Below are positions 2,792 to 62,200 of a stretch of 64,000 nucleotides of DNA, piece by piece. The stretch is taken from positions 7,061 to 71,060 of IMG/VR virus record IMGVR_UViG_3300043444_000400, one strand, 5' to 3'. Origin of the DNA: a virus. A model generated the notes under the pieces. It saw nothing but the letters and a program-made list of their open reading frames with translations. It did not search any database and had not been told where the DNA came from. The translations under genes and the position numbers were made by a program. The number at the start of each line of letters is the position of its first letter. The first letter of the stretch is position 1.

Positions 2792-3151
2792 ATGATAACT
2801 ATAACTTTTAAGTCTTTACAAGATGAATTCCCTAAACCAGGAGATGAAATAGCGTATATTACAAGTGAAGGGGGAATAACTAGTATAAGATTTTCTGAAG
2901 TCGTAATGTACTGGATGAAAGAAGAAGGGAATTGTATAGAGTATATAGATGAAGAGTGTGAAGGGTATACTCCGTTAACATTTCTTTCTGATGGAGAATG
3001 TCTAGACAATTACTTACTTGAGGGTGAGACTGATTTGTTCTATTGGACATATTTTAAGGAGTATTATGAAACAACGAAAGAAATATATGGAAAGGAACCT
3101 GAACCATATGATTATCTTAGAAGATTGCTATTTGACCCAATAGTAAAGTAA
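2792..3151 (+). CDS. hypothetical protein
   Basis: ORF track. Confidence 0.65.
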   Translation: MITITFKSLQDEFPKPGDEIAYITSEGGITSIRFSEVVMYWMKEEGNCIEYIDEECEGYTPLTFLSDGECLDNYLLEGETDLFYWTYFKEYYETTKEIYGKEPEPYDYLRRLLFDPIVK

Positions 3152-3188
3152 TATAAAGTTGTCCAGTAGTAAAGTAATATAAAGTTGT
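3141..3188 (+). repeat. 22-bp perfect direct repeat upstream of the tmRNA locus
   Basis: TAGTAAAGTAATATAAAGTTGT at 3141-3162 and 3167-3188; followed by inverted repeat TATAAGTA/TACTTATA (3193-3220). Confidence 0.85.
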
Positions 3189-3230
3189 TGGGTATAAGTA
3201 CACAGTCTTGTATACTTATATTTACGATAT

Positions 3231-3292
3231 GGTACTAAAAAGTATTAATGGAGTTAGCAAAGACAGCGGTTCAACTCCGCTCACCTCCACCA
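3231..3292 (+). ncRNA. ssrA: two-piece (permuted) tmRNA, acceptor piece
   Basis: GAC-A-GCGG-TTCAACT-CCGC-T-CACCTCC-A-CCA: T-arm plus 3' acceptor strand with encoded CCA; its 5' part (GGTAC, AGTATT, TTAGCAAA) pairs with the coding piece. 5' end approximate. Confidence 0.88.
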
Positions 3293-3385
3293 GGGGCAGT
3301 AGCTCAATTGGTAGAGCGAGAAGCTTATACCTTCTGTATGCACCAGATTAGTGCGCGGTTGTGGGTTCGAGTCCCTCCTGCCCTA
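3293..3385 (+). tRNA. trnI: tRNA-Ile(UAU) with long variable arm, forming the tmRNA intervening segment
   Basis: GGGGCAG/CTGCCCT acceptor, GCTC/GAGC D stem, AGAAG-CTTATAC-CTTCT anticodon arm (TAT 3326-3328), 25-nt V region, GTGGG-TTCGAGT-CCCTC T arm, discriminator A. Confidence 0.9.
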
Positions 3386-3389
3386 CCTT

Positions 3390-3600
3390 GGGGGTGTCCT
3401 GGTATCGATTTGTTAATGAAGTGAAATACTGTACCCGGTCTAGAGTCCAGGACCGACCCTATGTATATACTACATAGGTGAAGAAGGACAAAATCGTGTA
3501 AATGCGAATCAAATCAAACCTTTTGCTCGTAAGACCTCTCTTGCTGTAGCATAATCATTGAACTGGGGTAGCTCATAAGGGTTACCCTAGTTCTTCTTTT
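3390..3600 (+). ncRNA. ssrA: two-piece (permuted) tmRNA, coding piece
   Basis: 5' GGGGGTG-TCCTGGTATCGA pairs with CACCTCC giving G3.U70 (Ala identity); pk1-like pairings CGGTCT/GGACCG and GTCC/GGAC; tag frame after TAAAT; ends at terminator. Confidence 0.9.
3504..3554 (+). other. tmRNA proteolysis tag reading frame ANQIKPFARKTSLAVA*
   Basis: Resume codon GCG preceded by TAAAT; resembles cyanobacterial ANNIVxFARK...AA tags. Confidence 0.88.
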
Positions 3601-3601
3601 T
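3560..3601 (+). terminator. Rho-independent terminator ending the tmRNA transcript
   Basis: GAACTGGGGTAGCTC-ATAA-GGGTTACCCTAGTTC followed by TTCTTTTT. Confidence 0.85.
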
Positions 3602-3621
3602 GCTGTCATTTGGATTGTCTT

Positions 3622-3789
3622 ATGTTGGATCTTGCTTCGATTGGACAACTAGTTCGCCAACTATCTTTTGTTTATGCTGTATTTATGGCCTGTGACAGTA
3701 CCTATAAAAAGAATATTCATGCACAGATTTTTTTCTGTTCTATGGCCATAGTTATTCAACTACAACTTATTTTCGTTGGATTACGCTAA
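3622..3789 (+). CDS. small hydrophobic (membrane) protein, 55 aa
   Basis: Manual translation MLDLASIGQLVRQLSFVYAVFMAC...AIVIQLQLIFVGLR. Confidence 0.45.
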   Translation: MLDLASIGQLVRQLSFVYAVFMACDSTYKKNIHAQIFFCSMAIVIQLQLIFVGLR

Positions 3790-3932
3790 TGATGGACTTA
3801 TCTTTTTGGACTTATCTGGGTATAACTTGTTCTCTCTTTAATGCCTTAATTGACTTTGACCGTGAGAATTACTCGTGGTCTCTCTTCTGGGTTGTTTGGA
3901 CTATCTTGCTAGGAGTGAACAATTTGTATTAA
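3789..3932 (+). CDS. small hydrophobic (membrane) protein, 47 aa
   Basis: TAATG coupling; MMDLSFWTYLGITCSLFNAL...WSLFWVVWTILLGVNNLY. Confidence 0.45.
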   Translation: MMDLSFWTYLGITCSLFNALIDFDRENYSWSLFWVVWTILLGVNNLY

Positions 3933-4012
3933 AATGCTGTATAATTAACAGCAACACCTGTGAAAATCAGGTGTATATGCCCTGGTAGCTCAGTGGATAG
4001 AGCAATCGCCTT

Positions 4013-4657
4013 TGCAAAAACACCTAAGTAAGCTATAATTAACTTAGTTTATAAGGTGAACAAATGGAGCCTATTTGTTGGAAGGTTGAGAAGATTGTAA
4101 GTAAAGGTGACTATAACTATGCTGTGGTAAAAGGACACCCAAAAGCTAATAAGCTAGGGTATATTTTAGAACACAGAGTAGTTATGGAGAATCATCTTGG
4201 TAGACTTCTTAACTCTGATGAGGTTGTTCATCATATCAATCATGATAGAAAGGACAACAGGGTTGAAAACTTGGAAGTTATGACCGCAAAACAGCATCAA
4301 CTGCTACATGGAAAAGAGATAGGTAGGAAATACTGTCACTTAAAATGCCCTGAATGTGGTGTTGAATTTTGTAAAGAAATTAGAGATACTTTCTTACAAA
4401 AAGGGGGCAGGTTTACTACTTGTTCGGCAAAGTGTAGAGGAAAACTTTCAAGAAAAATCCAACTCGGAAGAGAAACTCAAATAGTGGAAGCCGCCATATC
4501 GGAGAACATCCTTGCTATTTTCAAAAGATACAAGGGCAACTCCGAGGTAACTGTCTTACAACAGGAACCGTAGAGACTATACGCGGCTCACCTGAAATGG
4601 TGAAGAAATAGTCCAGCCTACAACTCGAAAGAGGTCATAGTAATATGATGTGGGATG
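4013..4657 (+). mobile_element. group I intron carrying an HNH homing endonuclease
   Basis: Exon ends in U, intron ends in G; P3 GCCGC(4490)/GCGGC(4583), P4 TCGGAG/CTCCGA, P5 CCTTG/CAAGG, P7 GACTA(4575)/TAGTC(4609), P8 TCACC/GGTGA. Confidence 0.88.
4064..4573 (+). CDS. HNH homing endonuclease with C-terminal Zn finger
   Basis: EHRVVME...VVHHINHDRKDNRVENL HNH motif; CPEC...CSAKC. Confidence 0.9.
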   Translation: MEPICWKVEKIVSKGDYNYAVVKGHPKANKLGYILEHRVVMENHLGRLLNSDEVVHHINHDRKDNRVENLEVMTAKQHQLLHGKEIGRKYCHLKCPECGVEFCKEIRDTFLQKGGRFTTCSAKCRGKLSRKIQLGRETQIVEAAISENILAIFKRYKGNSEVTVLQQEP

Positions 4658-4715
4658 CTAAGCGATCGGTCGCAGGTTCGAGTCCTGCCCAGGGCGCTAA
4701 CTTTAGAGGTTAATA

Positions 4716-5039
4716 GTGATGGAAAAGATTAAGGTTGTAGATTACTATGACCATGAGCCTACTGCTTGGGATTCAGGTCTACGAGAAACCCCTATAGACC
4801 TCTATTTTGAGTTTGAGCCATATAGCGGTTTTTCTATAGTCAAAGGCTATAACTTTACTTGTGGGGAATATACTCTTACAGCTAAATGCCCCTATAGTGA
4901 CGAGACTTTTGACTTTGTTTATGAAGAATGGTGGGGAACATCTCTTCAAGAGTGGTTTGAGGATAGCGTAGATTCTTATCTAAATAAGAACAAAATGTCC
5001 CAAATGAAACTTAACTTACAAGGAGAAAATCATGACTAA
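4716..5039 (+). CDS. HicB-like domain protein (array member 1)
   Basis: PYSGFSI...FDFVY...SLQEWFEDSVDSYL, resembles the HicB N-terminal domain pattern. Confidence 0.5.
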   Translation: MMEKIKVVDYYDHEPTAWDSGLRETPIDLYFEFEPYSGFSIVKGYNFTCGEYTLTAKCPYSDETFDFVYEEWWGTSLQEWFEDSVDSYLNKNKMSQMKLNLQGENHD

Positions 5040-5655
5040 TCTGATTACTCTGTTTAAGAATTCTGAGAACGAGATTTCACATTTCAAGATTAACGGGGAC
5101 CAAGACTTTATTGAGGAGGTTCTTTTTGTTGTTGACTTTATTCAATATGAGAAATCAGAAGATGCCCTTACTTCAGGAAAGCCTCTTAGCTTTGATGTAA
5201 GTGGATGTTATGGCAATTACTACCTTCTTTTAGCTCTCTCCTCTATTACTCAGTATTTTGAATTTCAGATTGATGGAGTAACTAAACGAATTCCTTCTAC
5301 AGTTCTTCCTCCAGCTAAGGAAGTATTCGATAAATACCCTGATTATGAATATAAGAATTGGGGGAAAGATGACCTTGGGGTGGAGGAAATTCCTTGGCAA
5401 GATGTTATCCTTGCTAGCATTATTGAGGATTACATTCTAACTAATGAACCAATTGTTCTAGAGTATAAAGGTTTTACTTGTACTCTTACAAAAGACCCTG
5501 CGAACGACTGGAATTATACAGCAGTTGTAACTAATCAAGGTGTTGTTTCTTTTGAAGGTCAAGGTAATTTAACCTATCTTGAGACTCAATTTCCCGAATG
5601 TGTAGACTCAAAACTTCAAGGAAAGCGTATTTACACTATGTCCGTCTACTACTAA
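5032..5655 (+). CDS. protein with C-terminal HicB-like domain (member 2)
   Basis: LEYKGFTCTL...GVVSFEGQGNLTYLETQFPECVDSKL. Confidence 0.6.
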   Translation: MTNLITLFKNSENEISHFKINGDQDFIEEVLFVVDFIQYEKSEDALTSGKPLSFDVSGCYGNYYLLLALSSITQYFEFQIDGVTKRIPSTVLPPAKEVFDKYPDYEYKNWGKDDLGVEEIPWQDVILASIIEDYILTNEPIVLEYKGFTCTLTKDPANDWNYTAVVTNQGVVSFEGQGNLTYLETQFPECVDSKLQGKRIYTMSVYY

Positions 5656-5720
5656 ATTAGTTTTTTGTATTAGGGGTTCTTCATTGAGGAGAACCTCATT
5701 CATCAAAAAGGGGATTCACA

Positions 5721-6296
5721 ATGTCAAACTTCTTGTACATCAATAAAGATTTTGAGTGTTACGTTAAGGGTGATTCCACTTTTGTCTATGCCTTTATGAA
5801 AGCTGTTAAAGCTCAAGGCATAGCAGAGGTTGTGTTGAATGAAGAACAGCAAACCATATCCGCTAATTATTACCTCAATGCTCTTTATATCCTAGATATG
5901 ATAGCAACTATGAAGAAGCTATGTCCTGACTTCAAAGTTGTGTTTTGTAACGTCACAGACATTATTATGTCTAAGGAATTTCCAGATAAAGAATATCTGG
6001 ACTTCATTGAATTTAATCATGACATAATTCTGTCCTATATTGTTCATGCCAATACGAAGCGAGGAGCTAAAGCATTACGCTTTTGTTTCAACAATGACAT
6101 GATAGAAGATGTGCTGACATTTAGTTATAAGGATTTTCAGGTTTCTTCTGTTGAGTATAGCGAGATTTATGACAGTTTTGCAGGACTTGCAAGTCATAAA
6201 GATGATGTAACTAAAGAAGTTGCCTTTGTTGGTAAAGATGTAGAAGACCTAAAACAAGCTTTCCATGGTGCTGTAGATACGTATACGCAGACATAA
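5721..6296 (+). CDS. protein with C-terminal HicB-like domain (member 3)
   Basis: FSYKDFQVSSVEYSEIYDSFAG...VAFVGKDVEDLKQAFHGAVDTY; N-terminus paralogous to 5032..5655. Confidence 0.7.
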   Translation: MSNFLYINKDFECYVKGDSTFVYAFMKAVKAQGIAEVVLNEEQQTISANYYLNALYILDMIATMKKLCPDFKVVFCNVTDIIMSKEFPDKEYLDFIEFNHDIILSYIVHANTKRGAKALRFCFNNDMIEDVLTFSYKDFQVSSVEYSEIYDSFAGLASHKDDVTKEVAFVGKDVEDLKQAFHGAVDTYTQT

Positions 6297-6330
6297 GAGG
6301 TATAACAGTACAAAAATAAGAGGTATAACA

Positions 6331-6774
6331 GTGTTTGATTACATTCAGCCTTATGAAGGATACTCTTTCATCTGGAGTTATGTATGGCCTAGTCTTACAC
6401 AGAGAGGGCTTTCTACAGAAGTAAAAATACGAATCTGGTTTCCTTCTACTTCTTATCAACAGTTCTTTTCAACAGTAGACTATGTAAAAGCACATAATCT
6501 TAATCAATGGACTTTTAATTCCACCGTGGACTCATATATCAAGAGAATGGAACAAGAAGAACAAGGAGATTTTACTCTTATTAGCCAAGATGTAGGGATG
6601 GTTGATTTATTTACCCCTGTTATTACCCAGAAACACAATGAGGTATATCAAGGTACAGCTAAAGCAAATGACCTACAAGTTGATTTCTATGGACGTTCAG
6701 CGCTAGAATTAAAAGCTAGTTTGTACATGGAAGTACAAAGTCTATATCGTCGTATTCAAGGTTATGAGGACTAA
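6331..6774 (+). CDS. HicB-like domain protein, possibly two domains (member 4)
   Basis: QPYEGYSF...FNSTVDSYI and YQGTAKANDLQVDFYGRSALELKASL. Confidence 0.55.
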   Translation: MFDYIQPYEGYSFIWSYVWPSLTQRGLSTEVKIRIWFPSTSYQQFFSTVDYVKAHNLNQWTFNSTVDSYIKRMEQEEQGDFTLISQDVGMVDLFTPVITQKHNEVYQGTAKANDLQVDFYGRSALELKASLYMEVQSLYRRIQGYED

Positions 6775-6779
6775 GACGT

Positions 6780-6989
6780 ATGTTTGAATTAGAAGACTAT
6801 AAAGGATTCCATGTTGAGTGGATTGAACCTAATGATGATGGTTCTTTTACAGGGAAAGCCACAAAAGATAATTATCAAGTTACTTTCGTTGGTACAGATA
6901 AAGATTATCTGGAACAAGCTTTTCATGAATCAGTAGAAGATTTGTTTGAGTTTGTTGATGGGTTAGAGCAAGAAGGATTAGATGTATGA
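6780..6989 (+). CDS. stand-alone HicB-like domain (member 5)
   Basis: EDYKGFHVEWIEPNDDGSFTGKATKDNYQVTFVGTDKDYLEQAFHESVEDL. Confidence 0.7.
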   Translation: MFELEDYKGFHVEWIEPNDDGSFTGKATKDNYQVTFVGTDKDYLEQAFHESVEDLFEFVDGLEQEGLDV

Positions 6990-7399
6990 CAGAGAAATTC
7001 TTCAGTCTAGAACCTATCGATGGCTGTACCTGTGATTGTTATGTGGAAACTTATGAAGACACAAGTACTGTCTACTACGGGCTAGTTCAATTAGTTAACA
7101 GTGAAAGTTGTGCTGATATTAGTTCTTATACTTTAGATGGACTTAAAGAGAAGTTCAGATTGATTGTAGAGCTAGATGCACAAACTGCTAAATTGAATGA
7201 GACCTTGATTTTAGAGCAGGAAAACTGGACAGGTGAAATTGTAGCTTGCCTTATTGACGGGGTAGTCCTTGGTGTTTTCAAAGACGATTGGTGTAATGGT
7301 GAGTTCTTTATCCCGGTAGAGGTACTGAATCACATACAAACTTATTTTAAGACAATTGTTAGCTTACTAGAAGTTGGTATCACTGTTTACGGAGATTAA
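6986..7399 (+). CDS. divergent HicB-like domain protein (member 6)
   Basis: YVETYEDTSTVYYGLVQL...DISSYTLDGLKEKFRLIVE. Confidence 0.45.
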   Translation: MTEKFFSLEPIDGCTCDCYVETYEDTSTVYYGLVQLVNSESCADISSYTLDGLKEKFRLIVELDAQTAKLNETLILEQENWTGEIVACLIDGVVLGVFKDDWCNGEFFIPVEVLNHIQTYFKTIVSLLEVGITVYGD

Positions 7400-7404
7400 T
7401 CCTT

Positions 7405-7767
7405 ATGTCTGCTATGGAATCCCCTGCATCTCATTATCTTAAAAGCCCTCAATTATGGGTGAAGCATCCTAACGGAGAATACTCAATTCTTCCTAACGTA
7501 CATCACACTATTCCTGTAATTGACCATGTTGATTGGCGTTCATCTAAACGAGTTCCTGTTCTCTATGATTCAGAACCCTGTACAGGATTTAAGGTCCATA
7601 GTATCCCGGATACTTGTGCATTAATCGGATATGCTTGTAATGTCTTAGGGTTTGGTTTATATCGTGACGGAGATAAGTTAGACCATGACGCTTTTTGTGC
7701 TTCCTTGATGAATGAGTATCTTTCAAAAGGAGAGTCTGAAGATGAAAATCACCTTCCCCTTGTTTAA
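7405..7767 (+). CDS. hypothetical protein
   Basis: ORF track, GGAG SD. Confidence 0.65.
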   Translation: MSAMESPASHYLKSPQLWVKHPNGEYSILPNVHHTIPVIDHVDWRSSKRVPVLYDSEPCTGFKVHSIPDTCALIGYACNVLGFGLYRDGDKLDHDAFCASLMNEYLSKGESEDENHLPLV

Positions 7768-8125
7768 TTACACTCTTAGTATTGAGCTAACAACGAAAGA
7801 AAACTCTGTTAATCCTTCTGTAGCGGAAGTAGGAAAACAGATTCTTGAAGCTGTTTCTCTAACCACAAAGACTAAACCAATTCCATACCACTTAGACATT
7901 AAGAATTGGTACACCCCTTATGCCAGTGATTTCATTGTCCTTAATTCTGTAACCAAGGATATGGTGATTGAGCTAGAGAAATATTTATCTCACCTAGGGA
8001 TGAATAATAAAGCTCAAGTTTTCCATAATGAAGAAGACCACACTGTACGAATTAACTTTGCCTCCTCTTTGTTCAGTCGAGATAACTTTACCCATTACCT
8101 ACAATACATTCAAAAACATGTCTAA
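7742..8125 (+). CDS. hypothetical protein
   Basis: ORF track; start moved to MKITF after a GGAG SD. Confidence 0.6.
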   Translation: MKITFPLFNYTLSIELTTKENSVNPSVAEVGKQILEAVSLTTKTKPIPYHLDIKNWYTPYASDFIVLNSVTKDMVIELEKYLSHLGMNNKAQVFHNEEDHTVRINFASSLFSRDNFTHYLQYIQKHV

Positions 8126-8447
8126 AAAACACGCACCATCTCAACAAATTAAGCCCCTACAAGCTAAGAATACCTCTCACAATCGCTATAGTCGTGTAGG
8201 AGATTTGATTATTCCTGGAGTTCTTAAGCCCGGTCAAGTTGTTGTAGGTAAGTCTCAGTTCTTTGATAAGTGGTTTGTCTATCGAATTACCGATGGCCTC
8301 AAACCTCTAGCATCACGTTTTACATTTGACAGTCAACCGGAGGCTCAACATTATGCAAGTCAATGGACATACACTACAGGACGATGGTTCTTTTCCCCTA
8401 AAGTTTATATCCCACAAGATGATTCTTCCTTTGAGGGATTGGACTAA
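8118..8447 (+). CDS. hypothetical protein
   Basis: ORF track; likely start MSKKH overlapping previous stop. Confidence 0.6.
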   Translation: MSKKHAPSQQIKPLQAKNTSHNRYSRVGDLIIPGVLKPGQVVVGKSQFFDKWFVYRITDGLKPLASRFTFDSQPEAQHYASQWTYTTGRWFFSPKVYIPQDDSSFEGLD

Positions 8448-8760
8448 TCCAGGGTTATATGGGACTTGGAAAGAAGTTCACCACGATGTCACACAGGATT
8501 TTTATCTTTCGTGTGACTTCCCTGTTCTAGGGGTTAGTTTGAATGGCTCTGAGTTTCTTGCTCCTAATGTAGAACATGGAGTAATTAAGACTCTTGAGAA
8601 CGGTAAGACTTTGAACCTAAAGATTTCCCCTTGCCATAACATCTACTATCTGCATACGGTGGTAGCTCGTACCCTTGAAGGTACATATGGTATTCATGTA
8701 AAAAACGAGACAAAGGAGTACAGTGGTAACCAAAGGAGTGAACTCGCACTGTTGGTTTGA
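8419..8760 (+). CDS. hypothetical protein
   Basis: ORF track; likely start MILPL. Confidence 0.55.
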   Translation: MILPLRDWTNPGLYGTWKEVHHDVTQDFYLSCDFPVLGVSLNGSEFLAPNVEHGVIKTLENGKTLNLKISPCHNIYYLHTVVARTLEGTYGIHVKNETKEYSGNQRSELALLV

Positions 8761-9208
8761 TTCAACCCTGTGTGTAGTTTCTCTAGCTAAGAGCTTAGAC
8801 TCAAATACACAAGGTGCAATCGGCTTTGTCTATGTTTATGATGACACCGTATTTGAGAAATTAGTACAAGTCATCAAGAACATTGCGCCTTTACCTTGTG
8901 TAGCTACTAATATAGGGAAAGAATCTCAAATTAAGATATATTTCCCTACTACATGGACTGCACATAGGGTTTGTAGATTCCTAGACCAAGTTTCACAAGG
9001 AATTAGTAGTAAGGCAAAAGTAAATGTTGATAAACGTTTTAACTTTCCCTCTACTAAGATAACTAGGTATCAAATCTTCAACAAAGACGTAGATTATCAT
9101 CCTATTGATAGTTCATTTGTTGAATGGTGTGATGCTGTTCAAAAATTAGAAAGATTAACGGAGGAAGAAGAAGATGGCGAAGAAGGATTCCAGTTCTTCA
9201 TCGAATAG
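8723..9208 (+). CDS. hypothetical protein
   Basis: ORF track, GGAG SD plus GTG start. Confidence 0.65.
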   Translation: MVTKGVNSHCWFDSTLCVVSLAKSLDSNTQGAIGFVYVYDDTVFEKLVQVIKNIAPLPCVATNIGKESQIKIYFPTTWTAHRVCRFLDQVSQGISSKAKVNVDKRFNFPSTKITRYQIFNKDVDYHPIDSSFVEWCDAVQKLERLTEEEEDGEEGFQFFIE

Positions 9209-9368
9209 CACGAATAGTACCTCTCGTATTGCAATTGTTACTTGTAAATGCAATCATGCATTTCAAGACCTAACATACGGGATTAAGCGCCGTGTAGCAA
9301 ATCGGTGTGGTACTAAAGATAACTACAAATATCGTTGTACTGTGTGTCTTACTGAGCATAAGAAATAA
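9174..9368 (+). CDS. small basic Zn-binding protein
   Basis: CKCNHAFQD...YG...RVAN...YRCTVC. Confidence 0.65.
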   Translation: MAKKDSSSSSNSTNSTSRIAIVTCKCNHAFQDLTYGIKRRVANRCGTKDNYKYRCTVCLTEHKK

Positions 9369-9375
9369 CAACATG

Positions 9376-9411
9376 AAACTCCAGCTTAGTTATATCCCTA
9401 AGCTGGGTTTA
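9376..9411 (+). terminator. terminator-like hairpin
   Basis: CCAGCTTAG-TTATATCC-CTAAGCTGG followed by GTTT. Confidence 0.55.
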
Positions 9412-9453
9412 TAACAGGTAATCCTTTGCCCTACATTCTAATAGGTAATTCAC

Positions 9454-10041
9454 ATGCCTGTAATTCTTTCTTCCACAACCAAGAGTAGTACATATGACCT
9501 TAGTGAAATTCCTAAGGACTGTATACCCTTAGCACTTAAGGACCAAGAGGTTGCTAAGTTACTTCTTGATGCCTTCTACCAACAATGGTATAAGTTTGGT
9601 AGTCCACCATTTATTAAGGAGAAAACTCTTACACAGAACAAAATGGAGTGGGTATTTGTAGAACCTTACGGATATCTACATTTACCTAAAACCATTGGGC
9701 GTTACTTCCTACTTAAGGATAATACTTCAGCTAGTCTACCTTTACCTTGTCGTAATCTATTAAGCCGACATGATATGGGTACTGTTGACCTTAGTAAAGT
9801 AGAGGTTAAGAACTTCTTTCCTGAAGCACATATAAAACCTTTTGGGCAGGAATGTTCCACAATCTGTCTATATAGCCCTTCCTCCGTTGTTTCTCTTTTA
9901 GTTCAAACCCGAAGTTCTCGTCTAGAGAAAATTCTTCTAGGGTCTACTTTTCTTTCGTTTTTACACAGTCAAGGCTTTGAAGTACCTCTTCAAGGCTATT
10001 TTTGGCGCAATCTTAAATCAATGGAGTCCTCAAATGACTAA
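9454..10041 (+). CDS. hypothetical protein upstream of the Ubl cassette
   Basis: ORF track. Confidence 0.7.
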   Translation: MPVILSSTTKSSTYDLSEIPKDCIPLALKDQEVAKLLLDAFYQQWYKFGSPPFIKEKTLTQNKMEWVFVEPYGYLHLPKTIGRYFLLKDNTSASLPLPCRNLLSRHDMGTVDLSKVEVKNFFPEAHIKPFGQECSTICLYSPSSVVSLLVQTRSSRLEKILLGSTFLSFLHSQGFEVPLQGYFWRNLKSMESSND

Positions 10042-13327: not shown

Positions 13328-14350
13328 ATGACACGCAACATTGACATTTATCTAGTTGGCTGCGGTGGAATCGGTGCCAATTTTTTATCTAGTTTTTCTC
13401 AATTCATTCATGGTACAGTTGACCTTCAGAACAGACTTCGTACTTTCTATCTTTATGACGGTGATGTAATTGAGGGTAAAAACTTACAGCGTACCCCATT
13501 TGCACCTTATCAAGTTGGTAAGGCTAAGACTCAAGCCCTATATCAGAATTACAACAATACAAATCTACTCCCTCTGACTCCCTGTAATGTCTTTATCAAT
13601 GCTGAAAACATTAATCTTGTTTTTGAACGCTCAAATGATGAAGATGTTGATTTATTGGCTCTAGTTGTTACAGACCATGTATGGGAACGTGCCTATATTC
13701 TTAATTACCTTATGAACTCTATGGTAAATAAGAACATTATGTGGGCTACAGCGGGGAATTCTTTGGATAAGGGTACAGCTTTGTCTTGGATTAAGAAAGA
13801 TGGAGTAAATAACCCATTTGAATACAGTACTCCATTTGATTTCTCTGAGAAGTATCGAGATATGTTGAATTATCCTGGACGTGACCATTTAGGCGGTTTA
13901 GGGTGTGGCATGACTTGGGGTACAGAGCAAGAAGCAGGTCAGAGTCTTATGATTAACCTCATGTCTCAACTTGCCTTACTCTATATCGTTAAAGAGTACT
14001 TCACATCAAGACGCTGGGTTCCTTTCGTTGAATACCAGGATATTGATGGTCAGATTCAGCTAATTAATAAGCCTGGATGGGAACCTGTAAACCTAGATGA
14101 CGATGCTAGCTGCTTATGCACTATTAAGGAAGAACCTCCTTTTACAGCCCTTGCGTTGTTACGAGAGCTAGGAGTAACTTTTGATGACCCTTCTGATGAA
14201 GAGGAGGGTGACCTTTACACAGAGGAAGACCGTGAATTATACGATGATATGGAAGACGAGGACGATGACCCAGATTACAGAGATTACCCTGATGAAGACT
14301 TAGATTACCCAGAAGCCTATGACATGACTGACCTAGACTATATGAACTAA
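13328..14350 (+). CDS. ThiF/E1-like activating enzyme (PRTRC type) with acidic C-terminal tail
   Basis: LVGCGGIG, YDGDVIEGKNLQR, VGKAK, TDH..ER, WATAGN, candidate catalytic Cys in GLGCG, QSLMIN. Confidence 0.9.
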   Translation: MTRNIDIYLVGCGGIGANFLSSFSQFIHGTVDLQNRLRTFYLYDGDVIEGKNLQRTPFAPYQVGKAKTQALYQNYNNTNLLPLTPCNVFINAENINLVFERSNDEDVDLLALVVTDHVWERAYILNYLMNSMVNKNIMWATAGNSLDKGTALSWIKKDGVNNPFEYSTPFDFSEKYRDMLNYPGRDHLGGLGCGMTWGTEQEAGQSLMINLMSQLALLYIVKEYFTSRRWVPFVEYQDIDGQIQLINKPGWEPVNLDDDASCLCTIKEEPPFTALALLRELGVTFDDPSDEEEGDLYTEEDRELYDDMEDEDDDPDYRDYPDEDLDYPEAYDMTDLDYMN

Positions 14351-48123: not shown

Positions 48124-48852
48124 ATGGTAGAGTATAAAGTTTTTAATCTTAGAAACAAGGATTCTATCTTAGGATTTAGATGTGATAGAGGTAGTTCTTT
48201 AGGTAATCCTTATAAATTAACTAGAGATACAGAAGAGAATAGAGCTAAGGTTATTAACTTACATAATCAGTACTTTAGAGCTATCTTATTAGGAAGTTCT
48301 ATCGAGGTTGATTCTTCTCTATTAAGCTCTAAATATAAGCCCTGTGATAGATATAATTATCTTTCGTTGTTAGGTAAAGCTTTCCAAACTAATGGTTTCT
48401 CATGTTGGTGTAATCCACAACCTTGTCATTGTGATACTTATTTAGAATTTGCTAATTCTCCTAGAGTCTGTATTTCAGGTTCTAGAACTATTAAGGATAA
48501 AGATAAGATTTATTCTATTTTAGATAAATATTTAGTAAATCTTAATACACAAGCTACTAAGAGATATATTATCGGAGGAGACTGTAGTACAGGGGTGGAT
48601 GCTGTACTAAGAGAATATGCAGAAGCTAATGAGTATATGTATGTGCCCGTAGCTGCAAAGTGGAATGAACTTGGTAGAAGTGCTGGTATGCAAAGGAATC
48701 AAGTCCTAGTTAACTTATGCAATTACTTTATTGCTGTATGGGATGGACAAAGTAAGGGTACAGAAAATGCTATTAAGTTAGCTAGAAACAACGAAAGTAA
48801 AGGTACAATTAAACGTTTAGCAATAGAGGTACTAACTAATGAGTGTAAATGA
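48124..48852 (+). CDS. DUF4326-like + SLOG (YspA/DUF2493-like) fusion
   Basis: RGSSLGNPY...CWCNPQPCHCD; then ISGSR...GVD...GRSAGMQRN...WDGQSKGT. Confidence 0.75.
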   Translation: MVEYKVFNLRNKDSILGFRCDRGSSLGNPYKLTRDTEENRAKVINLHNQYFRAILLGSSIEVDSSLLSSKYKPCDRYNYLSLLGKAFQTNGFSCWCNPQPCHCDTYLEFANSPRVCISGSRTIKDKDKIYSILDKYLVNLNTQATKRYIIGGDCSTGVDAVLREYAEANEYMYVPVAAKWNELGRSAGMQRNQVLVNLCNYFIAVWDGQSKGTENAIKLARNNESKGTIKRLAIEVLTNECK

Positions 48853-55479: not shown

Positions 55480-57090
55480 GTGAATACTGAACAGAGAAAC
55501 CTACTACGAAGCCTGATTGAACCTTTAATTAAAAATACCAATGATAATTTAGTTATAAATGCTACGGTAGGATGTAAAGCTAATAATTCCTTTCGTTATC
55601 AAGGTTTATCAGTTACAGCTTTATGTGACATATATCCAGGAAATAAAGTATGGGTATTTAGAGATACCAAGAATGGTACGTACTATGGGGTGAGAGAAGA
55701 GTTTAATCCCGTACTTAACGAAAGAACATTTACAAGGAAGTATATTGCTCCAGAGCCTGTACGACGAAACATAGTGCCTTCTGTGGGATTGCTGTATCGG
55801 TATGTGCCTAGTATCAGACGGGATGAGATGGTGACCCCTACATTCAACCCGTACTATGAACAAAACCCTGAACTCCTAAATGATATTGAAATTTATCTAC
55901 TAATTGATGGCAAATACACACTGGCCACGTCAATACCTTTGGAATGGAGAGACTTGGGGACGCTAGAGTTTGTTGGGGGAGTTAGTATTGGTAGCATCTT
56001 CCCCGTTGGTCCTCCCCCTACTGGCTCAGCAACATTCAATCAAACGGGTAATTCAGTCTCGATATCTACGAGCGCATCTATGGGCACTGATACGACAGGG
56101 TGGTTTATAGAGGCCACTTACTCAGCAACGTTCAGCGGGCTAGCACTTAGGGGGTCTGTTAGTGCATCACGGTCTTTTGCAATATCGTCCGAGAATAATG
56201 GAGGGTCTGCTATTGAACTGATTCCTTTTGAAAGTCAAACTGACGTAGGTGCTTTCTTTGATGGAGTAAACACGATCGGGGGGTCATCATTCGATTTTGC
56301 GTTTACAGGGCAAAGTTCAGATACCGCGCCTTATGTTGACGAATTCAGGATCCACGCTCTGTCTAGTCTCGATTCAGCCGCAACCCTAATTATTGATGCC
56401 AGTGCTAGCGCCAGTATCAGCCTGTCCGATGTTGAAATATTGTGTGATCGTCAATGGGGTCGGTCATGGTCATACATAGACTCTCAGGGGTGGATTACGT
56501 GGGTAATTGTTTATGAAACTCCATCAGGGTCTGCTGGATACCCCACAGAGGAAGTCAGAACAGATGGCCCTAGCTACCTAGAGGAGCGAATCTACGGATT
56601 TTACGGCAAGAAGAACATCCAACGCCGTAAAATATATGCTCGTCGCTACTACGACGATGGAACCTCACAGTATGCCGAAGGTCAAGCCTTAGAGGATTTG
56701 GTCTTCAGCCCTGATCCTGTCACCCTTGAGGACTTCCGGGATAATCCCAAGAGCGTAAACCTGGAATGGGGGGCAACGGTTACCCCTCCGGTGTCCCCTG
56801 ATGAGTGCCTGAACGATTATCAGACTGACCGATTACTCAACTATCTACCAACCCGACGCAAAGCCTACGACCCCCCCACGTTCGGCATAATCAATGACAG
56901 CATCATCTCTGGGGATCCCCTCACTATCGAAGGCTATCGGGTCTCCAGTACTAACCCTACCTGTGACCTAGTGCCAGACCGTGAGTACCAGCAACGGATT
57001 CAAGCTTGGGCTAATTCAAAATTTGGGAGTGATCCAGAATCTGTAGATAATCCACCTGAGGTGTTAACTTTCTCTTACTATTCTCCGTAA
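55480..57090 (+). CDS. putative virion structural / receptor-binding protein (mosaic GC)
   Basis: S/T/G-rich beta-type middle; located in the tail locus. Confidence 0.55.
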   Translation: MNTEQRNLLRSLIEPLIKNTNDNLVINATVGCKANNSFRYQGLSVTALCDIYPGNKVWVFRDTKNGTYYGVREEFNPVLNERTFTRKYIAPEPVRRNIVPSVGLLYRYVPSIRRDEMVTPTFNPYYEQNPELLNDIEIYLLIDGKYTLATSIPLEWRDLGTLEFVGGVSIGSIFPVGPPPTGSATFNQTGNSVSISTSASMGTDTTGWFIEATYSATFSGLALRGSVSASRSFAISSENNGGSAIELIPFESQTDVGAFFDGVNTIGGSSFDFAFTGQSSDTAPYVDEFRIHALSSLDSAATLIIDASASASISLSDVEILCDRQWGRSWSYIDSQGWITWVIVYETPSGSAGYPTEEVRTDGPSYLEERIYGFYGKKNIQRRKIYARRYYDDGTSQYAEGQALEDLVFSPDPVTLEDFRDNPKSVNLEWGATVTPPVSPDECLNDYQTDRLLNYLPTRRKAYDPPTFGIINDSIISGDPLTIEGYRVSSTNPTCDLVPDREYQQRIQAWANSKFGSDPESVDNPPEVLTFSYYSP

Positions 57091-57100
57091 ACCAGAATAC

Positions 57101-57412
57101 CTAGTTAGCTAAATTACTAAGTAGATTATTTTTAGTAGATTCAGTAAGTATTCCTGTAACTGTATATAGATTGATTAGGTTGGTTTTAACTTCATCATTT
57201 CTTTCATTAAACACAGAGAGAAATACACTATAGAGTGTGTAGTTATCTTTAGGTTGACAACCTCCTAATACACTATCTAACCAAGTTGTATCTACTGCAA
57301 TATTTGTATACTGTGAGCTACACCACGAAAGAAAAGAGGATGTTTCTCCTAACATATTACTTTTATCTTGTGGTGTAAGAATATGAAAAGCTTCTTTTGC
57401 ATTTAAGGTCAT
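57101..57412 (-). CDS. hypothetical protein
   Basis: ORF track. Confidence 0.6.
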   Translation of the reverse strand: MTLNAKEAFHILTPQDKSNMLGETSSFLSWCSSQYTNIAVDTTWLDSVLGGCQPKDNYTLYSVFLSVFNERNDEVKTNLINLYTVTGILTESTKNNLLSNLAN

Positions 57413-57417
57413 AGTAA

Positions 57418-58212
57418 TTAAATCTGTACCAAATGAATGTTAAAACTTGAGTTAGCAATAGCGGCTAGGCTACCAGAGATTGCGGATACTTTGATTCGGG
57501 TCCGTGGCTTGAACAGTAAAGGTGAAATTTCTCTGCTATGAGTAGCATTGTCTAGCACGATTTGGTCTTGAAACAGGTACACCGGGGGCACCCCATCGAG
57601 CAAATCTCTCGAATCACGTTCACAGGTAGCTCGCAATCGAAAGTCTTGGCTGTGGTTTGTGGAGACTCCAGCGCCCCATCTATCGACTACGGCATAGTAG
57701 CCCTCAGGCACGGTGAACAAGCTTGATAGACTTTGGTTTCCGCCTGCTGTAATACGCTCATGGATTGCCCCACCCCCTGCAACTCGAAGGTCAATATTCC
57801 CCGCAGCCTTGCCCCCACTTCCTACGGTTTTACTGTGCAGCCAGTTGATTGCCCGACAATTGGCCATAGCTGCAATAGCTACGGGTGTTGTTCCGTTGAG
57901 CGTAACCGTTGCCGTTTGTGACAGCCAGGAATTATCCAGATAATGCACCTCTACGGTCCTTGTTCCCGTTCCCGCAGCCGCATCATTAGCAGAACTGCTC
58001 ACGACTTCCCAGGATTGTGCTCCTGTGGGTTCAGGAATGCTTGGCGTAGTTAGGTATTCTGCAATATCTTCAAGCTCAGTAGTGGTAGAAAATGCGGAGC
58101 GTCTTGCAGGGATGTTGAAGCTTTGGAAAATCTTCCCATCTAGTTGGCCCTCATAAAGCGCCCTCCAAGAATCAAAGCCATTATAAGTATTAACTCGTCG
58201 CAATAAAGCCAT
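57418..58212 (-). CDS. putative tail-associated structural protein
   Basis: VVSSSANDAAAGTGTRTV...LNGTTPV motif, recalled from phage virion proteins. Confidence 0.6.
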   Translation of the reverse strand: MALLRRVNTYNGFDSWRALYEGQLDGKIFQSFNIPARRSAFSTTTELEDIAEYLTTPSIPEPTGAQSWEVVSSSANDAAAGTGTRTVEVHYLDNSWLSQTATVTLNGTTPVAIAAMANCRAINWLHSKTVGSGGKAAGNIDLRVAGGGAIHERITAGGNQSLSSLFTVPEGYYAVVDRWGAGVSTNHSQDFRLRATCERDSRDLLDGVPPVYLFQDQIVLDNATHSREISPLLFKPRTRIKVSAISGSLAAIANSSFNIHLVQI

Positions 58213-58223
58213 AAATAAATCTC

Positions 58224-58544
58224 CTATGAAATGAACCAGTTAGAAACACCATCGGCCTCAACAATAACAGCTTCATAGGGCTGAAGCGTAAAGGAGGTTT
58301 CCCCATCAATTAGGTCTGATCCCGATCTAACAACAGTAACTGTATTGGCAGCGTTGTCAATCCGTTTTAATGTATGCAGGATGGTCGCAGATGATGCAGC
58401 AAGAGGAAGGGTAAGAACTATATTCCCCCCAGTTGCATTCAGCCTGTAACGATAGGAGTTAGTGCTAGAGAGCGTGGTGCTTGTCGAGATGGTTGCGACA
58501 GGGAAAGAGTCGATTCGAGTGTAAAGAGAAGTTAGGGTTGCCAT
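58224..58544 (-). CDS. small tail-fibre-module protein
   Basis: LTLP...RSGSDLIDG...DGVSNW module also present in 59277..63587. Confidence 0.65.
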   Translation of the reverse strand: MATLTSLYTRIDSFPVATISTSTTLSSTNSYRYRLNATGGNIVLTLPLAASSATILHTLKRIDNAANTVTVVRSGSDLIDGETSFTLQPYEAVIVEADGVSNWFIS

Positions 58545-58547
58545 GGG

Positions 58548-59273
58548 TTAGGGTCCAGTGGGGAATGGTGCTGTGGGGACAATGGAAACATTGCGGGCAA
58601 CGCCCTTGGTAATACGGACTGGGCCGATATACCCTTGAAAATAGTAAAGAGAATTTGCACCTCCCAAAATCAGGGGGAGTGTGCTGTTGTAGGGTGTGCC
58701 TGAATATGTGCCCGTGCCTATCAGGTACTGTGTTGTTGCTCCAGAGACCCCAATCCAGCATCGCCACGAATTCCCAGATCGGGTAAATGCAATATATACC
58801 CATGTACTCAGTGCTAGGGAGGGAGCACCGGTCGCAAAGTTGTTGATGAACCAGCTAGAACCAGTGGCGGATGCTGCAATTCCTAGCCCACCACTGGCGA
58901 CAAAAGGTAATACTGGGGCATACGTGTTTGCCACTGTCTGACCCAGCAGGTAGACAACGCTAGGGTTCGCTGAGGGATAAAGCCAAAATTCCGCAGTAAA
59001 ATCCCCAGAAAGATTAAATGCTTCCGAGTCGGGGGACTGGATTGAATCTCCTGTCCCATCCAGCGCGAGGCTACTCCCACCCGCAAAAGGACTCTGCGCC
59101 GTACTAATTACAGCGTCCCCATTCCAGGTTATGGGAAGGGCTAGTGGGCCTTGCTCTGTAGCGGGCTTGGAGCCATTTGTGCCCTGGAAGTTTTGCAGAA
59201 AAACCACGTTGGCCCAAAAAGGATCTCCTGTTTGTCTAAAGGCTTTTCTTCGATGTAATAAATATGGATTCAT
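58548..59273 (-). CDS. LamG / concanavalin A-like lectin domain tail protein
   Basis: GDPFWANVV, SLALDGTGD, DFTAEFW, W.YIAFTRSG, GYIGPVRITKGVAR. Confidence 0.8.
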   Translation of the reverse strand: MNPYLLHRRKAFRQTGDPFWANVVFLQNFQGTNGSKPATEQGPLALPITWNGDAVISTAQSPFAGGSSLALDGTGDSIQSPDSEAFNLSGDFTAEFWLYPSANPSVVYLLGQTVANTYAPVLPFVASGGLGIAASATGSSWFINNFATGAPSLALSTWVYIAFTRSGNSWRCWIGVSGATTQYLIGTGTYSGTPYNSTLPLILGGANSLYYFQGYIGPVRITKGVARNVSIVPTAPFPTGP

Positions 59274-59276
59274 CTT

Positions 59277-62200
59277 TTACCACCCTGTCGGCTCTGTCGT
59301 GAGTTCTAGGTATTGGATTTTGACCCCAATGAGCCGTGCATCCACTGCCAAGGTATCAGCTATATCTCGACTTACTTCAAAATAAATCCAGTCTTGTAAT
59401 GCCGGTGAACCCGCAACCGTCACGGATGCTGTGGCAGAAGTTATGTGCATTTCGTTGACTGCAATCAAGGTGTCAGTTACGGATTGAGCCGTACCATAAG
59501 CTGTGTCTAGCAGGTCGTCATCTGACAGGCTCCCTCCCTTGATAGCCCATGTTACGGTTCCGCTGCCACTCGTTGCGGTCCAATAGAAACGAGCCTTGAT
59601 TGTACCCCGGTCCCAAGAGTCAGGCATTGAAATTTGAAAACAGGCACCCTCGGAAGTCGTAGCGTCAAAATCTAGGGTGTCATAAGCAATGTCATTCGTC
59701 GTGGTCTCTACTGTAGCAATAGCGGCCCCGCTTGTTGCTCTAGGGGTCATGGCTCCCGCACCAATCCAAATCTCTCTGTATACTCCCGTTCTGGTCAATG
59801 GCCCAGTATTGGATATGGTAAGAGCATCTGTAGCGGCATTGGTTGTGAGAGAAATCCCACTTCCTGCGACGAAAGTAACCGTATCGTTTGCAGAATCAGC
59901 CACGATATTGGACTGCCCTGATACAGCAATTGTGTTGAACGAGGTCAGAGATGCGCTTCCACCTCCCGCACTGTAGTCTGTGAAAGATTCAGCGGCAACA
60001 ATAGCCCAGTTCGTGCCATAGAAAACCAGCCAAACACAGGCATTGTCGCTATCTAAAACTAGGGAAGATTGTCCTGCAATGGTTTGAACACCGTTGGGAT
60101 TGATTGTGAGTGGGGCAGCGGTAAAGTTGGGAAGTTGGTCAACAATGGCAATTTGGTCCCCGTTAGCCCCCGCTGGTAGATTTAATGTGGTTGTCCCTGC
60201 AATTTGGTACAGATTGCCTTTGACCCCCAAAACTGTAGGGGCCGTGACATAGACCGGTGTTAGTCCACCTCCACCAGGAATATTAATTGTGGCTGTGTTA
60301 CCCGAAACACTAACTGAAGCACCTTCCCCTGTGATGTTATAAATGGTTGCCTGTCCCGCTGTACCTTGGTTTACACCCTCATCCTGTAGTTGAACAAGTC
60401 TCTGCCCTCTTCCCGTGGTATACCAGTTACCTTGACCATCAGAATGAACTATAACTGATTCACCTTGATAGAAGACAACTGAAGTACTTCCATCAATCAA
60501 GTCTGAGCCAGAACGAGCTAAGGTCAGGGTGTTGTTACTGTTCCCCGGTATGACCTTGAACAGGTAGTGCAAGGAATCATCATAGTTTGGGCCGCTTCCC
60601 GTATTTGGCAAAGTCGCAGTAACAGATCCGCCTGAGACATTCACGAAAAATCTTTCGGAATTTAATCCTGGTGAGAAGTTGGCGTTTTTGGTTGTATATA
60701 GAGGGGCTGTGCTAGGTAGTATTTGAACACTCACAGCTTCTCCAGGGACAAATTCACCACTTCCTCCTGAAAGTAGACTAATCCCCCATGTTCTGTAAGA
60801 GCCTGAATCCACAGCACTAAAGATTCGGGCGTATGTGAACGCACCTGAGTCTTGTCCCGTAAGCTTAACGTAACCCCCTTGTGTTACAGAGCTTAAGACA
60901 TATCCAACAAAAACCCCGTTGCCATCAGTCTCACTAATTCTGATAGTGTCTCCAAATCCGCCCCCTGCACTTCCAAAGTTAAGTGCATCAAGACTAGACA
61001 ATTTAATCTCACCGGAAGCGGGTGTTGCATTACTGGTCAATGTGTATGTCATGTCAGACCCACCTCCACCAGAACCTCCACCAGAAACCTCAACTAATGC
61101 CCCCAAGGTTGTACCTGTGGCCCGGTAAAGTTTATTATTATCAGTTGCTATATAGAGCAATCCCGTATGTGTTGGTGTAACTAACGTAGGGTCTCCCGTG
61201 AAAGTTCGATAGCTACCGATGGGGGATAGGTTGCCTGGACCTGTGCCCGTAGAGCGATAAAGCAAGTTGGGAGTGGTGTCTGTGGATACAAAAAGTTGTT
61301 CCGTAGCGGTGGGAGTAACAATAGAAGGACTTCCCGTAAATGTATTATATGCTCTGATGTCAACTATGGTGTCTGGACTAGCATCAGTAGCGTTAACAGC
61401 CGGTCCAACAAAATTGATATTACTACGTTGAGGTAAAGGGGTTCCTTCATTCTCTACAGTTATTGCTGGAGGAGCATTAATCTCTATACTTTCGTTAGCC
61501 CCTGAATTAAGTGTAGTAAGTGTTATTCCTGTACCCGCTACAAGCTTATTACTAAGAAATCCAGGGGTTGTATCATTGGTACTGTTTTTTACCTTATAAC
61601 TTACGTTACTAAAATTAGTCCATTGTGCTGCTCCAACCGCAGGAGTCACCCCCGTACTCGTATTTGTTGCAATCCACCACATACCATTATGGGATACAAC
61701 ATCACCAGCACCATAAGCTGTACCTGAATCCCAAGCACCTTCATAACGTAAGGAATTAGCAATTACTTCTGTTAGAGTTGTAGAGATTTCTTGAATACAG
61801 CCATCATTAGGAGAATGACTAATGTTTGTAATACTTGTACCTGTGTATACGAAACAATAGCAGACTTCGTAAGTGTAATTCTCAGCAGGAATTGTGTTTG
61901 TTATAGAAGATATTACAGGGGTTACGGGGCTATAGAGACCATAGGGAGTATTTGTGGGAATCGCCGTATCCGTAGTCCCATCTTCATAAGTCAGCGTATA
62001 TATGTCAGAGGCTAAGGACGGGGTAACTCCTTGGTCAAAATAACGAAAGGAAATGGAAGAATCACCTAAATTAGTTCTCTTTATATAAAACCTAATACTC
62101 TCTGCAAAGAATGTTCCTTTAGTAGAACTCGCAATAACATCAGAATAATTACTTCTAATTTGTGTAGGGTATGTGACGGTAATGTTTAGAGTAGAATTTG

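Follow-up and report, generated by a model that had tools for sequence, protein, structure and literature searches.

The window analysed here comprises 64,000 nucleotides of viral DNA (bases 7061-71060 of the 71,060-base IMG/VR virus record IMGVR_UViG_3300043444_000400, for which CheckV gives a completeness of about 53%). Near its left end, six consecutive genes, m1 to m6, form an array related to the antitoxin HicB. Profile and pairwise comparisons establish homology to the N-terminal domain of HicB for m5, for the C-terminal parts of m2 and m3 (m2C and m3C) and, through a link by way of m5, for the C-terminal half of m4 (m4C). HicB N-terminal domains neutralise the toxin HicA (PMC11594946). 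No recognisable HicA gene accompanies the array, and the ribbon-helix-helix (RHH) tail, which follows this domain in canonical HicB proteins, is missing. It is proposed, with a confidence a little short of even, that the array is a tandem phage family derived from the toxin-binding N-terminal domain of the YKGY-type HicB, and that its products would act as free HicA-neutralising decoys.

The six open reading frames (ORFs) had been picked out in an earlier reading of the letters alone (the sequence-only reading), and all of them are present, on the plus strand and at the positions then given (Table 1). The array is tightly packed, with overlaps at the m1/m2 and m5/m6 junctions, and purine runs that resemble Shine-Dalgarno sequences can be read ahead of every start.

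Homology to the HicB N-terminal domain

A profile made from m5, m3C and m2C (A2) was searched against 1.84 billion representative proteins and gave 78 matches at E<=1e-3, three of which are the window's own proteins. Among the 75 outside matches, PF05534 (HicB) starts right after the matched stretch in 24 and PF21748 (UPF0150-like) is present in seven, once jointly with PF05534, which makes 30 proteins with one or the other; 42 have no Pfam family, and three long repetitive proteins look spurious. The motif of these relatives begins with Y-K-G-Y, continues through F-x-G and V-T-F-x-G, and ends in a helix closing on V-D-D-Y-L.

A second model, a hidden Markov model (HMM), was made from outside proteins only (76 domain pieces from 72 proteins). 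Circularity was avoided by excluding P0001-P0004, which are proteins of the window and near copies of these; the three spurious proteins and four of the 80 domain matches, which cover fewer than 40 profile positions, were also dropped. Of the 528 six-frame segments with 40 or more residues in the record, all of which were scored with this HMM, m5, m3 and m2 took the first three ranks, m1, m4 and m6 took ranks 5 to 7, and noise began at rank 8 (E 1.2). As m1, m4 and m6 are interleaved with the strong members and hold ranks 5-7 of 528, a chance result would be very unlikely. Rank 4 is held by an ORF upstream of the window, which on its profile score is a seventh gene of the array. Its 160-residue frame begins with a Y-K-G-F motif, followed by about 95 residues to which no nature is assigned.

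Other comparisons give the same picture for the strong members. The phage family phrog_9151, 'HicB-like antitoxin', matches three of the six ORFs (m5 at 2.3e-4, m3 at 4.1e-3 and m2 at 7.9e-3), and in m2 and m3 the match covers the C-terminal 55 residues. The pairwise identity is 42% over 55 residues for m3 and m5 and 34% over 50 residues for m2 and m5. When m4C is aligned with m5 (z 6.3), none of 500 shuffles reaches the score; m1 against m4N, the N-terminal part of m4, gives z 3.3 (2 of 500 shuffles), and the N-terminal part of m6 against m5 gives z 2.1 (20 of 500). From the first two of these tests, m4 is probably a two-domain protein in which m4N resembles m1 and m4C resembles m5. The domains can accordingly be graded by sequence as four firm, two probable and one weak; as HicB N-terminal-like (HicB-N-like) domains, m1, m4N and m6 are only suggestive. 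The member nearest to the canonical HicB family, as judged from these scores, is m5.

The homology to the HicA-neutralising domain of HicB, as put forward in the sequence-only reading, is thus supported by the outside-only HMM and by the 24 outside matches with PF05534. The same reading saw one motif in all six ORFs and called members 1, 4 and 6 the weaker ones. The motif lies well above chance in m2C, m3C, m5 and m4C and is weaker in the rest; the lower grade is appropriate for m1, m4N and m6 (E 0.0036, 0.0059 and 0.039) but not for m4C. An unrelated N-terminal domain said to be common to two members finds no support in m2 and m3: their N-terminal regions (about 140 residues in m2 and about 130 in m3, neither with an assigned fold) align with z -0.4, 329 of 500 shuffles scoring as well, and hhalign of the m3 family against m2 gives a probability of 0.8%.

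Table 1. Members of the array and features beside it (window positions unless marked; rank and E value refer to the outside-only HMM)
Feature	Position	Strand	Rank	E	Description
m1	4716-5039	+	5	0.0036	107 residues; likelier start ATG at 4719; weak HicB-N-like domain at about residues 27-98
m2	5032-5655	+	3	2.2e-9	207 residues; C-terminal HicB-N-like domain at residues 142-196 (nucleotides 5455-5619); representative-library match P0003
m3	5721-6296	+	2	5.1e-11	191 residues; C-terminal HicB-N-like domain at residues 133-189 (nucleotides 6117-6287)
m4	6331-6774	+	6	0.0059	147 residues; GTG start; probable domains m4N (residues 1-80) and m4C (about residues 89-147)
m5	6780-6989	+	1	1.6e-13	69 residues; bare HicB-N-like domain
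m6	6986-7399	+	7	0.039	137 residues; weakest member; possible HicB-N-like unit at residues 22-62
Seventh HicB-N-like gene	record 3278-3757, about 3.3 kb before the window start	+	4	2.1e-4	
Permuted transfer-messenger RNA (tmRNA), Rfam	3231-3554				83.6 bits (gathering score, 47); 1.2 kb upstream of the array
tmRNA, ARAGORN call	3200-3645				contains a 95-nucleotide 'tRNA-Ile(tat)' call at 3293-3387
Split tRNA gene	3979-4696	+			left boundary of the array; 5' half from 3979, 3' half to 4696; intron of about 640 nucleotides
HNH endonuclease ORF in the tRNA intron	4064-4573				PF13392, 9.4e-14
Group I intron	4386-4637				Rfam Intron_gpI, E 2.9e-8, 40.3 bits; gathering score of 50 not reached

Toxin, tail and variation

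The sequence-only reading recognised neither a HicA nor an RHH or helix-turn-helix (HTH) tail, and this holds for the 71-kb record, itself about 53% complete. PF07927 (HicA) matches nothing in it, and the best E values of two local HicA profiles are 1.1-1.2. No DNA-binding family of Pfam reaches its curated cut-off in m1-m6; the sole DNA-binding model listed is HTH_62 in m5 (E 0.029, 14.8 bits against a cut-off of 27). In m2, m3, m4 and m5 the HicB-N-like domain ends at the stop codon or at most about 11 residues before it. The stop of m3 falls within the helix of the domain, and m5 stops where the RHH tail begins in canonical HicB proteins. As these are phage genes in a virus record, a phage-borne antitoxin homologue without its toxin is, to judge from the profiles, what is found here.

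The outside relatives, by contrast with the array, are canonical HicB antitoxins in ordinary hicAB modules. In a first set of loci, from viral and metagenome sequences, a PF07927 HicA lies directly upstream in all nine, in eight of them above the curated cut-off. In a second set, from bacterial genomes, HicA is no more than 100 nucleotides away in 72 of the 80 loci, at least 41 further residues, the RHH tail, follow 79 of the 82 domain matches, and two copies occur in only two loci, each pair being two separate modules. In a third, viral set, some members of which are near-duplicates or repeats of the first six, HicA is present in 26 of 29 loci, a tail of at least 42 residues in 28, and more than one copy in none. 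All three sets lean towards the canonical arrangement because they were found through the conserved helix. A look-up of clusters for ten of the outside relatives returned no names.

Other arrangements of the domain were also seen. A viral contig (L113:4809-5210) encodes a solitary protein of 133 residues with a C-terminal HicB-N domain, a tail of five residues and no HicA nearby; its architecture is reminiscent of m2 and m3. Metagenomes contain proteins with several HicB-N domains, three in P0005 and two each in P0014, P0021 and P0052, and in a quick tree of the 76 outside domain pieces and the six window copies these duplications are internal. The same tree places every window copy on a long branch (1.4-6.5, where the median is 0.42). 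The copies form no cluster (6 changes, a number as low in 500 of 500 shuffles), and no starred branch rules out a single origin. The tree therefore fits both duplication within the phage and repeated capture.

Relatives of the array genes are few. Near-identical DNA to the stretch is found only in freshwater metagenome runs, and no RNA data set is among those listed for it. Two relatives of m3, 95% and 83% identical to it, have both halves and no stops, and the helix is invariant in them; m5 has one relative, 91% identical. Relatives of m3 sought in viral and metagenome contigs were not found, tblastn with m5 matched none of 50,697 phage records, and blastn of 3000-9500 gave nothing beyond an 80-nucleotide tRNA-like stretch and two other short stretches.

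The region 4000-8000 was compared with contigs from four freshwater runs of three studies. One contig of 1337 nucleotides, about 95% identical, spans m4-m6; it differs in 58 letters and has two deletions of 9 and 3 nucleotides, both in frame and both in m4. A second, about 85% identical, runs from the end of m3 across m6. To judge from these contigs and from the relatives of m3 and m5, the array genes appear to be maintained. Two contigs, from runs of different studies, are joined differently at the tRNA-proximal end. In one, position 4698 is followed by 5027, just before the start of m2, so that m1 is absent; in the other it is followed by 5714, just before the start of m3, and both m1 and m2 are absent. 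In each case 22 other letters lie between the joined parts, and position 4698 is two bases beyond the 3' end of the tRNA gene. Whole-gene presence/absence variation at this end of the array, with m3-m6 kept, is probable and not certain, because each joint has no more than 30 letters on its tRNA side, a length flagged as borderline.

The region of the m3-m4 spacer differs as well in one related contig, where 79 nucleotides are replaced by 85 other letters. In the window, this spacer (6293-6333) contains a direct repeat of about 16 nucleotides that includes a ribosome-binding-like site. A scan for promoters and terminators found no useful excess over shuffled sequence (25 against 19.7 and 7 against 4.0).

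A decoy function and its alternatives

Without an operator-binding tail and without a toxin, the array would have no use as an addiction or autoregulation module. As the toxin-binding part alone has been kept, its simplest use would be that of a free inhibitor of host HicA RNases. The process might then be pictured as follows. The RHH tail would have been lost from all copies, with no hicA alongside, and the infected cell would produce the proteins as free antitoxin decoys. Host RNases of the HicA type, released or activated by the infection, would be their targets. Once HicA is bound, the abortive shut-off of translation would be blocked. The divergent copies would cover divergent HicA variants across host strains. 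The likeliest true HicA binder is m5, as the most canonical member; m1, m4 and m6 have diverged so far that their target may have changed.

Potential targets exist in cyanobacteria. The host side was sampled with 151 genomes of the phylum of MAG Thermosynechococcaceae cyanobacterium (MAG, metagenome-assembled genome). HicA is found in 80 of them, with up to 34 matches per genome, so that the large number of hicAB loci that the sequence-only reading gave for cyanobacteria is borne out, as regards HicA genes, in some of these genomes; the YKGY-type HicB subtype is found in 34 of the 151. HicA of E. coli cuts mRNAs and tmRNA (PMC11594946). The tmRNA and tRNAs that neighbour the array and an RNA ligase gene farther along the window fit a theme of countering RNA damage, which is only an association. 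A more elaborate version of the proposal, in which a strain-variable, diversified HicA-neutralising panel would track host HicA by gene turnover while the phage tmRNA would replace the tmRNA cut by HicA, is considered rather doubtful.

Several observations weigh against the decoy proposal. None of m1-m6 is recognised as HicB-like by the curated models of Pfam, NCBIfam and PADLOC: the HicB-related Pfam models PF05534, PF15919 and PF21748 match none of the six ORFs at E<=1, and NCBIfam matches none at E<=10. In alignments, m5 alone retains those helix residues that are conserved and exposed in the canonical family, and extra regions with no assigned function are attached to m2, m3, m6 and the upstream copy. 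A cyanobacterial genome that has the HicB subtype has it no more than once or twice, so that six or seven decoys would outnumber the cognate loci of any one host. A cyanobacterial host is itself a guess, and the nearest phages, Nodularia siphoviruses, have only 27% identity in the DNA polymerase. The variation at the tRNA-proximal end depends on the 30 letters at the tRNA side of both joints. Finally, according to the review PMC11594946, there is no experimental demonstration that HicAB defends against phage.

Some of these points favour a different view, in which the HicB-N fold was exapted as a scaffold, i.e. as a small, fast-evolving binder of other host proteins that no longer acts on HicA, the products being other defence inhibitors or host-takeover factors. 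The very long branches of the window copies, the confinement of the canonical helix residues to m5, the additional N- or C-terminal regions of m2, m3 and m6 and the excess of copies over cognate hicAB loci per host genome are all in its favour, and the structural neighbours of similar Z (see below) include the phage inhibitors T7 Gp1.2, AcrIF proteins and Acb4. However, m5, m3C and m2C still match canonical HicB N-domains at 1e-9 to 1e-13, as would more readily be expected of proteins that have retained the ancestral interface, and no result points to an alternative target. Such a change of function is considered somewhat unlikely.

The predicted structures are not decisive either. The AlphaFold2 (AF2) model of m5, built from 24 aligned sequences, has a predicted local distance difference test score (pLDDT) of 87 and the order strand-strand-strand-helix. 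It is without the final strand of the canonical HicB N-domain, a partial RNase H-like fold the topology of which is strand-strand-strand-helix-strand (PMC10865869). A Foldseek search of the PDB with this model has no row at E<=1e-3, and at its top stand the double-stranded RNA-binding domains (dsRBDs) of RNase III and Dicer (E about 0.07, probability 0.93). With an exhaustive aligner, the HicB N-domain of B. pseudomallei (6g1c) has a Z of 5.2 (root-mean-square deviation 2.2, 55 aligned residues), TTHA0281 (2dsy), presumably HicB-like kin, 5.1, E. coli HicB3 (6u0i) 5.0, HicA3-HicB3 (4p78) 4.8, and 6g1n 4.7; these HicB N-domains are tied with ribosome hibernation factors and dsRBDs, and the best Z is 6.4. 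In the fold check that the sequence-only reading proposed, the BFVD search is led by a phage protein with the name 'RNase H fold, HicB family' (E 0.018, TM 0.65), but neither the PDB nor BFVD gives a row at E<=1e-3. Searches of PDB sequences with m5, A2 and a profile A3 returned designed proteins and chance rows only, TTHA0281 among them at E 0.83. The predicted fold is compatible with HicB and is no proof of it; as the fold evidence is not decisive, the case for HicB identity rests on the sequence profiles.

The models of the remaining members are poorer. An AF2 model of full-length m3 from three sequences (mean pLDDT 44.9) was judged unusable. In the ESM Atlas models of m6 (pLDDT 0.48) and m1 (0.66), all named matches are under the bar of the tool. 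The m6 model resembles, under this bar, PUR-like proteins with two repeats (PurA/DUF3276-like), and m6 is possibly a two-repeat protein.

The dsRBD rows raise the alternative of RNA binding. The strand-strand-strand-helix unit would act, in the manner of a dsRBD, on structured RNAs of the phage or the host such as tmRNA, tRNAs or intron RNA, and the genes do adjoin a tmRNA and an intron-bearing tRNA. The same rows, although the best in the PDB, stay above E 1e-3, the first helix of a dsRBD is absent from the m5 model, and the sequence homology is to HicB and not to dsRBD families. RNA binding is thus quite improbable.

As the record is about half of a genome, the rest of it could contain a hicA, which is a further point against free decoys. 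The copies would then be cognate antitoxins of one or more phage hicA genes in the unsampled half, serving as the phage's own toxin-antitoxin or superinfection-exclusion systems. The incompleteness of the record, the presence of the same protein on a 136-kb contig and the compact hicAB of cyanophage PaV-LD, the HicB of which is without a DNA-binding domain (PMC10865869), speak for this possibility. Yet hicA stands directly beside hicB in 107 of the 118 loci of the relatives (some viral loci recur between the sets), and none of m1-m6 has such a neighbour, which leaves it very improbable.

There is a similarly small chance, or a slightly smaller one, that the copies are decaying or neutral paralogues, leftovers of captured hicAB modules with no present function. 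Three of them (m1, m4 and m6) are barely recognisable, and m1 and m2 are dispensable in related contigs. Against decay stand the six open frames with their ribosome-binding-like sites, the full length of the relatives at 83-95% identity, and the fact that the indels in relatives are in frame.

Genomic setting and comparison with known systems

The array begins next to a tRNA gene that, as read from the sequence, seems to be interrupted by a group I intron with an HNH endonuclease ORF in it. The 5' half of the tRNA comprises an acceptor strand, the D arm and an anticodon-stem strand, and the 3' half an anticodon-stem strand, the T arm and an acceptor strand; ARAGORN made no call there. Within the neighbouring tmRNA, bases 3299-3378 share 96-97% identity with a stretch that carries the annotation tRNA-Ile in Synechococcus phage SynMITS9220M01.

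The genome is that of a tailed phage, as PHROG matches include DNA polymerase, primase/helicase, exonuclease, ribonucleotide reductase, portal protein, a thymidylate-synthase-like protein, two DNA methyltransferases and an RNA ligase. Among phages, the DNA polymerase finds matches only in Nodularia siphoviruses (139-147 kb), with which about 27% of the residues are identical across one third of the protein. A freshwater cyanobacterium is a reasonable guess for the host. Farther along, across 56000-62000 of the window, the GC content rises from about 0.35 to 0.45-0.49; this part has minus-strand genes, including that of a 1436-residue protein and those of baseplate/virion-like proteins, and may be a structural module of different origin. 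A ThiF/E1-like protein (13328-14350; PF00899, 5.2e-7) and a protein with DUF4326 and SLOG (YAcAr) (48124-48852; 4.4e-11 and 9.6e-9) are, by their family matches, candidates for nucleotide- or conjugation-related anti-defence functions.

HicAB is among the most abundant toxin-antitoxin families, and a phage that spends six or seven genes on toxin-free HicA-binding domains would offer a direct handle on the question of HicAB in defence. So far, a part of HicAB in phage defence has been no more than proposed (PMC10865869, PMC11594946). If the HicA-decoy panel is true, it would be the first anti-HicAB counter-defence and the first indirect evidence that HicAB acts as an antiphage defence in cyanobacteria. 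If the proteins do not bind HicA, the array would still be a clean case of an antitoxin fold reused by a virus. From the divergence of the genes and from their presence or absence in related phages, one could learn how the specificity of antitoxins changes in an arms race.

The sequence-only reading called such an anti-toxin array undescribed. This was an overstatement, as counter-defence by orphan antitoxins has been published or speculated upon; what can be kept is that a tandem array of HicB N-domain paralogues lacking a DNA-binding domain was found neither in print nor in the examined loci. Likewise, no phage array of HicB N-domain genes and no demonstrated anti-HicA counter-defence was found in the main texts of open-access papers and bioRxiv. 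By analogy, the HicB array would extend to another family what is already known of orphan antitoxins as counter-defence.

The closest system by homology is the canonical type II HicB with its PF05534 tail beside hicA. The N-terminal domain is homologous, and the secondary-structure order of the m5 model is compatible with it. The canonical locus, however, has a single copy, with HicA next to it and a tail of 41 residues or more, whereas the phage array has six or seven tandem paralogues and neither toxin nor tail. In m2 and m3 the domain is C-terminal, behind another region, while canonical HicB carries it at the N-terminus, followed by the RHH. In the compact hicAB modules of classes 1 and 2, HicB has 60-90 residues and no DNA-binding domain and is linked to or overlaps hicA; one of them is found in the Planktothrix phage PaV-LD (PMC10865869). 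With its 69 residues and no DNA-binding domain, m5 resembles these HicB proteins but has no linked hicA. The metagenome proteins with several HicB-N domains have, like the array, repeated domains with no recognisable DNA-binding domain, but fused in one chain instead of encoded by separate genes.

Phage antitoxin relatives or mimics without a toxin are known from other families. T4 Dmd acts against RnlA and LsoA. Orphan antitoxin-like genes of T4-like phages overcome DarTG1 (PMC11257639), which is a precedent for the decoy logic, and a DarG2-like protein has been reported from chimalliviruses (PMC13309987). In standing without a toxin, the array is like all of these; they are single genes of other families with demonstrated functions, whereas the array is of the HicB family, multi-copy and known from its sequence. 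The moraphages possess free-standing antitoxin genes, CcdA- and HicB-like ones being named, that are associated with homing endonucleases and have been speculated to counter host defence (PMC12619734). Moraphages and the present phage thus have in common several toxin-free antitoxin genes in a large aquatic phage, with an HNH gene just upstream of the array in the present case. That account does not describe a single domain family diverging in a tandem array, and the HNH gene next to the array m1-m6 belongs to the tRNA intron.

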